64,000 bases of DNA from Octopus sinensis. Its lineage: Eukaryota. The notes beneath the pieces were generated by a model that was given only the letters and a program-made list of their open reading frames with translations, was not told the DNA's origin and did not search any database. Of this stretch, positions 11,321-15,039 are shown one piece after another (the first letter of the stretch is position 1; every line of letters starts with the position of its first letter). Both the position numbers and the translations under genes were made by a program. The stretch is taken from assembly GCF_006345805.1 (NCBI RefSeq), contig NC_042997.1, positions 185,628,001 to 185,692,000 on the forward strand, given 5' to 3'.

Positions 11321-12092
11321 ACCCTTTCATACACTGTTTTAAAAGATATACTTTATATCTTATAGTAATTGGGGGAAATCCCGTTGCGCTGAATCAATGA
11401 CTTGTTTTCAAGTTCCAGTTCTAGCTACTTCACTTGTTTCTGTAAATTGAAGAATGTCCTCCTGAATGACACGAAATTTGCATTATATTCACGGCACAAC
11501 TAATCACCTATTCACGGATAATGTGCTGTGAACTACATTCTATCAAAGTGTTGATAGCACATTTAGTAGAATGTTAACTGCTAATTACGTATATGAATAC
11601 ATGCAACAATCTATGTACGTACAGAAAGATACATGTATATATATATATATATATATATATATATATATATATATATGTATGTATGTATGTATGTATGTAT
11701 ATATATATATATATATATATATATATATATACTAAGCAATAAGGGTTCAGCAACGAATTGCCTTACCACATACCGAATTTAGAAATAGCAGTCAAAGGGT
11801 TATAGCTATTTCTTCTACAAAAAAGGGAGATCTCAGTAAAAACAGCAATTGGAAGGCTGACACAAACAGGTAAGAGAGAATGAATTAATATGAATATTTT
11901 ATCTCAGTAGATGACTACAGCATCTTGTTTTGGCTACACGCGGGTGGGAAGGGGCTGTTGACACAATCGTTTCATTCACAAATTTGAATTCGGTGATACT
12001 AGTTGAGGATTCTAGCTCGCTCTGATACTGAGTTGAGTTGGTACCTCCTAGTATCTCAAAATTCAATATATAATCATTTATGATTATAGTAT

Positions 12093-12199
12093 TCCACGCT
12101 GAAGAGAAAAGAAGTTTCGGTAAGATAGAATTATTTAATATTTAATATTTTAATTCTTATGCTTTCCTATGACTTGATTTCGAAACGTACGTCCGTGGA
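12093..12199 (+). ncRNA. Type I minimal hammerhead ribozyme, copy 1
   Basis: Stem I TCCACG/CGTGGA, core CTGAAGA, long stem II (GAAA..AAGT..AGAATTA / TAATTCT..ACTT..TTTC), GAAAC-GTAC-GTC with palindromic loop 3; predicted cleavage after C12193. Confidence 0.85.
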
Positions 12200-12692
12200 T
12201 AACTTTAAAAATGTTTGATAGATTGCGGTTAATTCATTCTCTCTTACCTGTTTGTGTCAGCCTTCCAATTGCTGTTTTTACTGAGATCTCCTTTTTTGTA
12301 GAAGAAATAGCTATAACCCTTTGACTGCTATTTCTAAATTCGGTATGTGGTAAGGCAATTCGTTGCTGAACCCTTATTGCTTAGTATTACTTAAATTTTC
12401 CTCAAATGAGGCTTTTACATGCCGAAGACTACTTGGTGTAATTGATAATTATTCCAAATTAATTAATTTCACCCTTCATTATTACGGATAACCATATTTT
12501 ATCTCAGTAGATGACTACAGCATCTTGTTTTGGCTACACGCGGGTGGGAAGGGGCTGTTGACACAATCGTTTCATTCACAAATTTGAATTCGGTGATACT
12601 AGTTGAGGATTCTAGCTCGCTCTGATACTGAGTTGAGTTGGTACCTCCTAGTATCTCAAAATTCAATATATAATCATTTATGATTATAGTAT

Positions 12693-12799
12693 TCCACGCT
12701 GAAGAGAAAAGAAGTTTCGGTAAGATAGAATTATTTAATATTTAATATTTTAATTCTTATGCTTTCCTAAGACTTGATTTCGAAACGTACGTCCGTGGA
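12693..12799 (+). ncRNA. Type I minimal hammerhead ribozyme, copy 2
   Basis: Same motif 600 bp downstream; predicted cleavage after 12793. Confidence 0.85.
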
Positions 12800-13293
12800 T
12801 AACTTTAAAAATGTTTGATAGATTGCGGTTAATTCATTCTCTCTTACCTGTTTGTGTCAGCCTTCCAATTGCTGTTTTTACTGAGATCTCCCTTTTTTGT
12901 AGAAGAAATAGCTATAACCCTTTGACTGCTATTTCTAAATTCGGTATGTGGTAAGGCAATTCGTTGCTGAACCCTTATTGCTTAGTATTACTTAAATTTT
13001 CCTCAAATGAGGCTTTTACATGCCGAAGACTACTTGGTGTAATTGATAATTATTCCAAATTAATTAATTTCACCCTTCATTATTACGGATAACCATATTT
13101 TATCTCAGTAGATGACTACAGCATCTTGTTTTGGCTACACGCGGGTGGGAAGGGGCTGTTGACACAATCGTTTCATTCACAAATTTGAATTCGGTGATAC
13201 TAGTTGAGGATTCTAGCTCGCTCTGATACTGAGTTGAGTTGGTACCTCCTAGTATCTCAAAATTCAATATATAATCATTTATGATTATAGTAT

Positions 13294-13399
13294 TCCACGC
13301 TGAAGAGAAAAGAAGTTTCGGTAAGATAGAATTATTTAATATTAATATTTTAATTCTTATGCTTTCCTAAGACTTGATTTCGAAACGTACGTCCGTGGA
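13294..13399 (+). ncRNA. Type I minimal hammerhead ribozyme, copy 3
   Basis: Same motif; predicted cleavage after 13393. Confidence 0.85.
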
Positions 13400-15039
13400 T
13401 AACTTTAAAAATGTTTGATAGATTGCGGTTAATTCATTCTCTCTTACCTGTTTGTGTCAGCCTTCCAATTGCTGTTTTTACTGAGATCTCCCTTTTTTGT
13501 AGAAGAAATAGCTATAACCCTTTGACTGCTATTTCTAAATTCGGTATGTGGTAAGGCAATTCGTTGCTGAACCCTTATTGCTTAGTATTACTTAAATTTT
13601 CCTCAAATGAGGCTTTTACATGCCGAAGACTACTTGGTGTAATTGATAATTATTCCAAATTAATTAATTTCACCCTTCATTATTACGGATAACTATATAT
13701 ATATATATATATACAAATATGTACACAAATATGTACACGAATAAATACAAATCTATAAGTAAATATGTACTCGTTTGCTTGTATTTATGTATGACTAAAT
13801 ATGTATATCTCTCTGCCAATATATACATATGTATATAAGTATGTATATATAAGATATATATATATATATATACGTTACGTATATATAGTATATATATATA
13901 TATATATATATATATATATATATACAGAAGCACATACATACATGCATACATATATAAAAATCGATGTATAGATGTCTGTTTCTCTCAAAGAGTTTTTTTT
14001 TTTAATATACAAACAGAAGACTACTTATTAAACAAACAACATTAAAAATAGACTAGACATGTCGTACATAAAGAAATTATGAAATATTGATAAAAACTTA
14101 CCCAACGGGATGATCGAACGTTGCTGCAGCTATTCACGTCATTAGCCTCCAGGGAGAACTATTTGTTTAGCCACTCAGTATATTGCAGTTGTTAATTGTA
14201 CAAGGGTTTATAATATGCAACAAACAACGACGTAAACATTACATATTTCAGATAAATAATCTCATACAAAGTTAGAAATATTTTCAGACTTCCAAGCACA
14301 CACGAGAATGCCAAGACCCATAGAGCATTTAGACGCATATTAATTATGAATTGAGGTAGTGTGAATCGAGTAAGATATTTAATCACTAATATTTCACAAC
14401 GACTCAACTACACATTCGATACTGTTTTCTATCTATAGAAGTTAAAGAAATGGGAACTGTGTTCGTAAAATACACCGTATAAAATAATCTTGAATATTCA
14501 GAAGTCACTATCAGCAGTCCGTGAAGCGATCTGTCTGGAGGTTCTATATTTCTCTCTCTTCGCTGTTCATCATTAGGGTACAGTAATGTGTTTACATTCT
14601 TTTTTAACCCACAGTGCGTCTTTGTAATATTTTACTTTATTTCAGTTCAGATTTACGCTGTGTGTGATATATAGACTGTTTAGATAAGGACGTAACGTGA
14701 AATGCACAGGTATTTAAAATTGGTTACACACCATGGTGGATAACTTAATTCACCACTACTTTATATTGTAACTGATCTATACTATTCATTCGGGGCAAAG
14801 AAACTATATACATTTTCTCTGAGGATCAGCAGACAAACCCTGAAATGATCCGCCAGGAAGCTCCCACCTTCTTATTCCCGCAGTAAGAACGTGATTCCAT
14901 CCTTTTAAAAACTACAGAGTTGCATTTTAATGCTAAAATAAATTTCACTTCTAATTAATGTTGGCATCTGGAATGTCATCAGGTTCTCCCTGCCCTCTCA
15001 TAGTCTATAATTCAATTGTTGGATGTTCTACATATAGAA

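Follow-up and report, generated by a model that had tools for sequence, protein, structure and literature searches.

The locus described here raises the question of how a non-coding sequence with a predicted ribozyme in each of its repeats comes to lie as a tandem array inside a microsatellite, capped at one end by an inverted piece of itself. The array is found in a 64,000-nt stretch of Octopus sinensis contig NC_042997.1 (positions 185,628,001 to 185,692,000, forward strand), which we call the window and number from its first letter. The origin of head-to-tail arrays of retrozymes and Penelope-like elements (PLEs) is debated: a circular template was proposed in 2014 and 2020 (PMC4209133, PMC7229834), and a 2026 preprint (10.64898/2026.07.22.740005) proposes a satellite-like expansion whose mechanism is still to be worked out. 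Here and below, what we say of cited papers concerns the parts of their text that were available. The element in the window is a newly found family of the described retrozyme class. We consider it fairly probable that the insertion belongs to a young family of retrozymes without long terminal repeats (non-LTR), a known class, and arose by two-ended priming on one circular RNA by a Penelope-like reverse transcriptase (RT) and endonuclease (EN). An initial annotation had proposed a retrozyme mobilised in trans by a PLE. This is supported by the lack of a linked PLE open reading frame (ORF) in all of the 61 insertions studied, by PLE-type ends, by (TA)n targets and by a covarying palindromic hammerhead.

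Anatomy of the insertions and their two kinds of 3' end

The array consists of three head-to-tail units with 99% aligned identity, between which, ends aside, there are one substitution and two single-base indels. They carry intact hammerhead cores and are free of ORFs, as had been described; ATG-initiated ORFs within a unit reach 37-47 aa, and with at most 47 aa a coding role is ruled out. The GC content of the unit is 0.34, under the 45-50% that bounds non-LTR retrozymes, and the arrays have no LTR architecture. We found no ORF with RT and GIY-YIG domains between pseudo-LTRs (pLTRs), and no PLE match, in the 64-kb window. The inverted cap at the left end, earlier given as 159 nt, is 160 nt long and 100% complementary to units 2 and 3. 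The placement of the block within (TA)n also holds, with runs on both sides. The features are as follows.

11636 to 11731, no strand: left (TA)n target microsatellite
11729 to 11888, minus strand: inverted short arm that corresponds to unit positions 336-495 (unit-2 numbering) and has the 'early' 3' end, a putative priming site, on its outer side
11889 to 11893, no strand: 5-nt arm-to-arm junction, the putative head-to-head joint of two cDNA ends
11894 to 12493, plus strand: unit 1, 600 nt
12494 to 13094, plus strand: unit 2, 601 nt
13095 to 13693, plus strand: unit 3, 599 nt, whose end at about position 600 is the 'late' 3' end
12093 to 12199, plus strand: hammerhead 1, type I, predicted cut after 12193, stem II insert of 76 nt, stem III palindromic
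12693 to 12799, plus strand: hammerhead 2, type I, predicted cut after 12793
13294 to 13399, plus strand: hammerhead 3, type I, predicted cut after 13393
11901 to 11968, plus strand: predicted central long-range helix, strand one (unit 8-75)
12221 to 12287, plus strand: predicted central helix, strand two (unit 328-394)
12299 to 12485, plus strand: 3' module kept in sister families (unit 406-592), a putative RT-recognition domain
13589 to 13693, plus strand: 105-nt 'tail', from the early to the late 3' end
13694 to 13757, no strand: right (TA)n target microsatellite

A 17-nt core of the motif is found in 1,280 exact copies genome-wide (2.7 Gb) and its reversed control in none, so the motif is not a product of chance. 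A DNA search gave 251 matches (drawn from 35 of the 1,250 candidates), with 98-100% identity among the 150 matches listed. The first 100 core copies make up 30 loci on one contig (C1), which extrapolates to about 380 loci, and the arrays are dispersed over many contigs. We describe the family as young, non-coding and non-autonomous, with an estimated several hundred insertions. As it is young and abundant and its copies are near-identical, single insertion events can be read. We studied 61 insertions: the window insertion itself, 33 chosen for the closest match to it and 27 more listed on C1. A C1 locus less than 80% identical (L249) was left out, as were five stray pieces next to main insertions. 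No PLE ORF directly adjoins any of these 61 insertions, and in 11 a PLE fragment lies within the fetched stretch, the nearest 435 bp away. The check on copy number and ORF linkage suggested in the initial annotation thus speaks against a pLTR that is always attached to an ORF.

The anatomy of the insertions is the most useful part of the results. Their 3' ends fall into two zones about 105 nt apart, an early zone at 487-504 (mostly 495) and a late zone from 573 to about 610. The ends sit on TA microhomologies of 2-4 nt, and just 7 of the 35 TAT/ATA sites of the unit are inside these zones. Of the head-to-head insertions (n=30), 27 have one early and one late end, none has two ends of the same kind and three have one end elsewhere, so that all 27 classifiable two-armed insertions are early/late pairs (binomial p=1.5e-8). 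One-armed insertions end early in 30 of 31 cases, or 32 of 36 if the five stray pieces are counted. The flanks are TA-rich on both sides in 54 of the 61 insertions, and the PLE-type signature of 5' truncation, an inverted copy, a tail at one end and a microsatellite target is present. At the 5' side, no end out of 91 lies within 10 nt of the ribozyme cut (3.2 expected if uniform). Extra same-strand pieces were seen near some main insertions (L062:10545-10810 in a joined C11073 stretch, L135/L136, L141 and L252); three of the four end at the late site, and they are possibly complex single events.

In L1 twin priming, both target ends prime on one RNA and an inverted 5' piece results, the two arms copying separate parts of a linear RNA. 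The arms of the window family, in contrast, overlap and repeat the same sequence many times. Their inner ends are independent of the priming site of the partner arm, with 5 of 30 tied (chance 0.19). As the inner ends do not lie near the partner's start, L1-type twin priming on one linear RNA is ruled out.

The hammerhead and the predicted fold of the unit

Each unit contains TCCACG-CTGAAGA, an insert of 76, 76 or 75 nt in units 1 to 3, respectively, then GAAACGTACGTC and, after the cut, CGTGGA. The cleavage C lies at 12193, 12793 and 13393, the positions predicted earlier. The core is canonical (CUGAAGA, stem II with G-C as its basal pair, GAAA, a stem III of 2 bp capped by the loop GUAC, and GUC) and agrees with CUGANGA / GAAA / NUH with stems I-III; the only core change at the level of an array is at position 7. 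The earlier description as type I with a palindromic loop, here GUAC, is correct, and its term 'minimal' does not fit the account in PMC4209133, given the 2-bp stem III. The Rfam search proposed for the hammerhead gave no hammerhead match in the window at E<=10, only spurious low-score microRNA and other matches, mostly in (TA)n. Sister family C, which has a shorter stem II, likewise matched no hammerhead family at E<=10. The assignment is therefore based on the motif and on covariation.

For the latter we aligned 14 hammerheads from the window's family (A) and families B, C and D, which were hand-picked from motif scans and are mutually related. Pairing is found in 94.6% of the 168 cells, with 38 two-sided changes and 8 of the 12 pairs altered on both sides. 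None of 500 shuffles reached the observed pairing percentage or covariation score, and slid controls pair at 13-43%. Because the 14 sequences are related, the cells are not independent, and the covariation should be taken as support and not as a probability. Stem III with its loop is a perfect palindrome in several distinct sequences, whereas it is imperfect in family C as well as in a part of the B and D copies. For the palindrome, a self-duplex is computed at -11.2 kcal/mol against +1.7 kcal/mol for the hairpin, and it corresponds to the dimeric hammerhead design of PMC4209133. Given that the stems covary between sister families and that stem III almost always stays palindromic, it is likely that the predicted hammerhead cleaves as a dimer. 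A further hammerhead type, with another 8-nt palindrome and a stem II insert of 49-60 nt, was seen at L131, L133 and L225:2321-2411.

Taken by itself, the hammerhead has an unremarkable local fold (z -1.1 to -1.4). When the cut-to-cut monomer is folded as a circle, the energy is -158.6 kcal/mol with z -6.2 (60 shuffles). The linear folds give z values of -6.1 for family A, -6.8 for C and -7.2 for B, and -3.4 for the opposite strand of A (25 shuffles each). In the predicted fold, stem I joins both ends of the monomer and a central helix of unit 328-394 with 8-75 divides the ribozyme lobe from the 3' module. This helix recurs in families A, B and C despite their differing sequence. As it arises in any repeat phase, it is compatible with a circle and no proof of one.

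One circle or a linear template

The events that we propose would begin with transcription and dimeric self-cleavage at paired hammerheads, which would release 600-nt monomers. A monomer would then be circularised, with a host RtcB-type ligase as the probable enzyme, in line with PMC7229834. The PLE enzyme would nick (TA)n, after which one DNA end would prime at about position 495 via a short UA microhomology and the second at about position 600 on the same RNA. Each cDNA would circle the template between 0.1 and about 15 times and the two cDNAs would be joined head to head; where the second end is not extended, a one-armed array would be left. In the window insertion, the early primer would have produced the 160 nt of the inverted arm and the late primer three turns. 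This scheme makes countable predictions, namely one early and one late end per insertion, private variants throughout an array and no stop at the cut. We give about even chances to its fullest form. In that form, the arrays would be footprints of rolling-circle reverse transcription, in which one Penelope-type complex copies a single 600-nt ribozyme-made circle, each (TA)n end is given its own start site, 105 nt from the other, and up to about 15 turns are made per end; the RNA would belong to an old superfamily of structured circles, which may recruit the enzyme by shape and not by common sequence.

Private substitutions, defined as unique to one array with at least three informative units, number 97. 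Most of them (85) are singletons, which are errors or later mutations, and 12 occur in two or more units. Eleven of these 12 are present in at least 93% of the informative units, and all five that can be tested are on both arms. At position 405, the three units of the window and its inverted piece carry the same variant, which is absent from almost every other array. Of the 137 non-major alleles that occur in at least two units, 123 are fixed in their array, many of them being subfamily markers. The lengths of the arms on C1 (n=44) run smoothly from 0.1 to 14.6 units (Kolmogorov-Smirnov test against an exponential with fitted parameter, p=0.09).

A different template would be a linear transcript that reads through a parent array and stays uncut, used by the same retrozyme with the same two-site PLE priming; insertions of 1-2 units would supply the bottleneck, and arrays would later grow by unequal exchange. 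Local amplification by unequal crossover is proposed in 10.64898/2026.07.22.740005, about half of the C1 arms are around one unit or shorter, and fast expansion would also fix founder variants. However, both arms are at least one unit long in 7 of 30 two-armed insertions, up to 10.4 + 8.9 units, with private variants common to both. The arm lengths show no gap at one unit, adjacent and distant units differ about equally (0.0018 vs 0.0020), and only one of 11 unfixed shared variants forms a block. The linear transcript would also leave the covarying ribozyme without a clear role, and we regard this explanation as rather unlikely, though a serious one. The template might instead be a ribozyme-cut linear monomer ringed by stem I, with the RT jumping repeatedly from the 5' end to its own 3' end. 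The predicted pairing of the monomer ends suits this idea, and private variants would be fixed here too. But 285 of 315 units have an unaltered 18-mer across the unit junction, the loss of a C at the cut, seen in 6 cases, is no commoner than other homopolymer losses within the 18-mer, and 5' ends do not pile up at the cut; we find such jumping improbable. The suggestion that the arrays are inert leftovers, whether as pLTRs of some autonomous PLE not yet seen, as an ordinary satellite or as an expansion made by the assembly, can draw on the missing partner among the PLE families sampled, a subset of those in the genome. It is largely refuted, and we give it very little credence, as the tandem period is the ORF-free 600-nt unit itself in arrays across many contigs and tandem misassembly cannot yield inverted arms and fixed ends. 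Furthermore, contigs from four public runs (three coded organisms) span all 30 unit bins and cross the unit-to-unit joint. The public runs number 24, of which none is recorded as RNA and 18 are guessed to be RNA, so that they speak neither for nor against expression. In run X1, single contigs enter (TA)n at 12387 and 12492, the early and late end sites.

Several points weigh against copying from a single circle by a PLE enzyme. Fixed private variants prove only a bottleneck of one monomer, and fast unequal exchange after insertion would mimic the pattern within an arm. Subfamily alleles are mosaic in L043 (6/10), L060 (4/11) and L034 (3/15), which may be due to polishing noise or mixed templates. 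The distance across arms is below that to the nearest other array in just 7 of 19 cases, with 8 ties and 4 above. The assembly is noisy, as the private singletons and the 30 of 315 altered junction 18-mers indicate. The hammerhead is unmatched by any Rfam model, 8 of 9 predicted Xenopus retrozyme dimers failed to cleave (10.64898/2026.07.22.740005), and the main substrate in vitro in PMC11167929 was uncleaved linear RNA, which also favours the read-through transcript. Finally, no autonomous partner with unit-like sequence is found among eight PLE families, of which some loci may lack the full pLTR. If copying from a circle is true, it would mean that animal DNA is copied from a ribozyme-made RNA circle and that the PLE 'tail' is explained as a strand-assigned second primer. 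For biochemical work, the 600-nt unit offers a defined substrate on which the start sites have been mapped.

Relatives, candidate partners and known systems

The 3' module covers the early 3'-end zone and extends into the late zone, and is 75% identical to that of family B (about 567 nt) and 68% to that of family C (about 560 nt; compared over 428-591). Both sister families also form tandem units, and a pattern not matched by family A occurs in 1,679 exact copies, which mark this 3' module in sister families. More broadly, a superfamily of sister retrozyme-like repeats of about 560-600 nt was seen (L067-L096, L062:1-2750 and L215-L244), with 3' modules 68-80% alike, differing hammerhead stems and two end zones identical in placement. 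At window position 12259, where the window has A, the depth of run X19 is almost wholly T; the organism of that run thus seems to lack the window's youngest subfamily, and the burst would then be lineage-specific.

The search for a partner covered eight PLE families: Neptune-like L097-L134 and L147-L184, Hydra-like H1 (L185-L214 and L263-L268) and H2 (L269-L310), two old families (L311-L340 and L341-L370), a 960-aa family (L371-L373) and L374. Further PLE families exist in the genome, among them a third Neptune-like one with fragment L064, and some sampled loci may stop short of the full pLTR. The eight families have at most about 20-30 nt of AT-rich sequence in common with units A, B and C, and larger matches near PLE loci are neighbouring retrozyme insertions. 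Intact frames of 775 aa (Neptune-like) and 960 aa (Hydra-like) are present among the sampled PLEs. When the PLE ORFs were searched with Pfam, RT matched in one only and GIY-YIG stayed below the cut-off in another. The label Hydra-like comes from RWK-like, DKT and some CxCx5C motifs, matched by eye to section 11 of PMC8557442. Hydra-like elements appear to be the better guess for a partner than Neptune-like ones because of their RWK-like and DKT motifs, their hammerheads with a long stem II, their 8-nt palindromes and their longer tails (about 70 and 150 nt, compared with some 40 nt for Neptune-like elements). With inserts of about 54 nt and 77 nt in their own stem II, they also make the window's stem II of about 75 nt, earlier called unusual, less so for this genome. 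The early/late pairing is likewise seen by eye in all seven two-armed loci with both ends in view of two autonomous Hydra-like families (L186, L187, L206, L209, L301, L302 and L305; L186/L187 possibly one locus).

Some of the sampled PLEs deserve mention on their own. A young Hydra-like PLE (L371:2692-5571, minus strand, and L372) has a 960-aa open frame, a period of about 5.6 kb and a hammerhead whose stem II insert is 77 nt long. A Neptune-like PLE (L153, L155, L157, L159, L161 and L167) has many near-identical frames of 775-777 aa, (TA)n targets, a tail of about 40 nt and, by eye, a hammerhead-like motif with a variant core. In another Neptune-like family (L127-L134), the hammerhead-like motif of the pLTR, also read by eye, has U3/A8 instead of C3/G8.

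With metazoan non-LTR retrozymes, for which circles are reported in coral, mussel and axolotl and tandem cDNA from circles is hypothesised (PMC7229834), the window family shares non-coding tandem units with one type I hammerhead each, low GC (34%), the lack of LTRs, dispersal and co-occurrence with PLEs. It shares the palindromic stem III with dimeric amphibian forms. The unit of 600 nt is longer than the expressed examples of about 170-400 nt; it falls within the 51-972 bp of animal retrozymes in the preprint (35 species, no mollusc; retrozymes linked to PLEs), so that the unit length is less unusual than had been thought. The 76-nt stem II insert sets the family apart, and two-armed head-to-head insertions, two fixed 3' ends and array-wide private variants are not described in the available text on those retrozymes. 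In Xenopus, 24 of 57 families matched Repbase, nearly all PLEs, whereas the window family matches no sampled local PLE pLTR. The words 'retrozyme' and 'ribozyme' are absent from the available text of a 2026 Octopus vulgaris repeat annotation (PMC13282606), and bioRxiv 10.1101/2022.05.23.493040 had nothing further on the subject. In the literature searched, which mostly excluded subscription papers and whose supplements could list the family, we found no genomic demonstration of single-circle copying, no strict early/late pairing and no cephalopod retrozyme.

The (TA)n targets, 5' truncation, inverted truncated copy and one-end tail are also described for PLEs with a C-terminal GIY-YIG domain, especially the Hydra clade (PMC8557442). 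Unlike these, the window family has no RT/EN ORF, up to about 19 units per insertion and a tail of about 105 nt instead of 30-40 nt. The Poseidon element PAc of Anolis (PMC11167929) is alike in having its tail flanked by two neighbouring internal start sites, in the priming of both DNA strands in vitro and in its AT-rich target; the one-end tail of PMC8557442 can thus be equated with the stretch between two in vitro RT start sites. However, the start sites of PAc in vitro are equal between strands and use no target homology, whereas the window family splits its ends in 27 of 27 classifiable insertions on TA microhomologies. MRC1 and other non-autonomous Chlamys elements (PMC8557442) resemble the window family as non-autonomous partners of PLEs that form multicopy head-to-tail insertions. 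A canonical hammerhead is, however, absent from most Chlamys elements, and the non-autonomous ones have 3' sequence in common with their partner.

No host gene was identified near the insertion in the window. Elsewhere in the window, a zf-RVT match at 24067-24540 is the remnant of another non-LTR retrotransposon.

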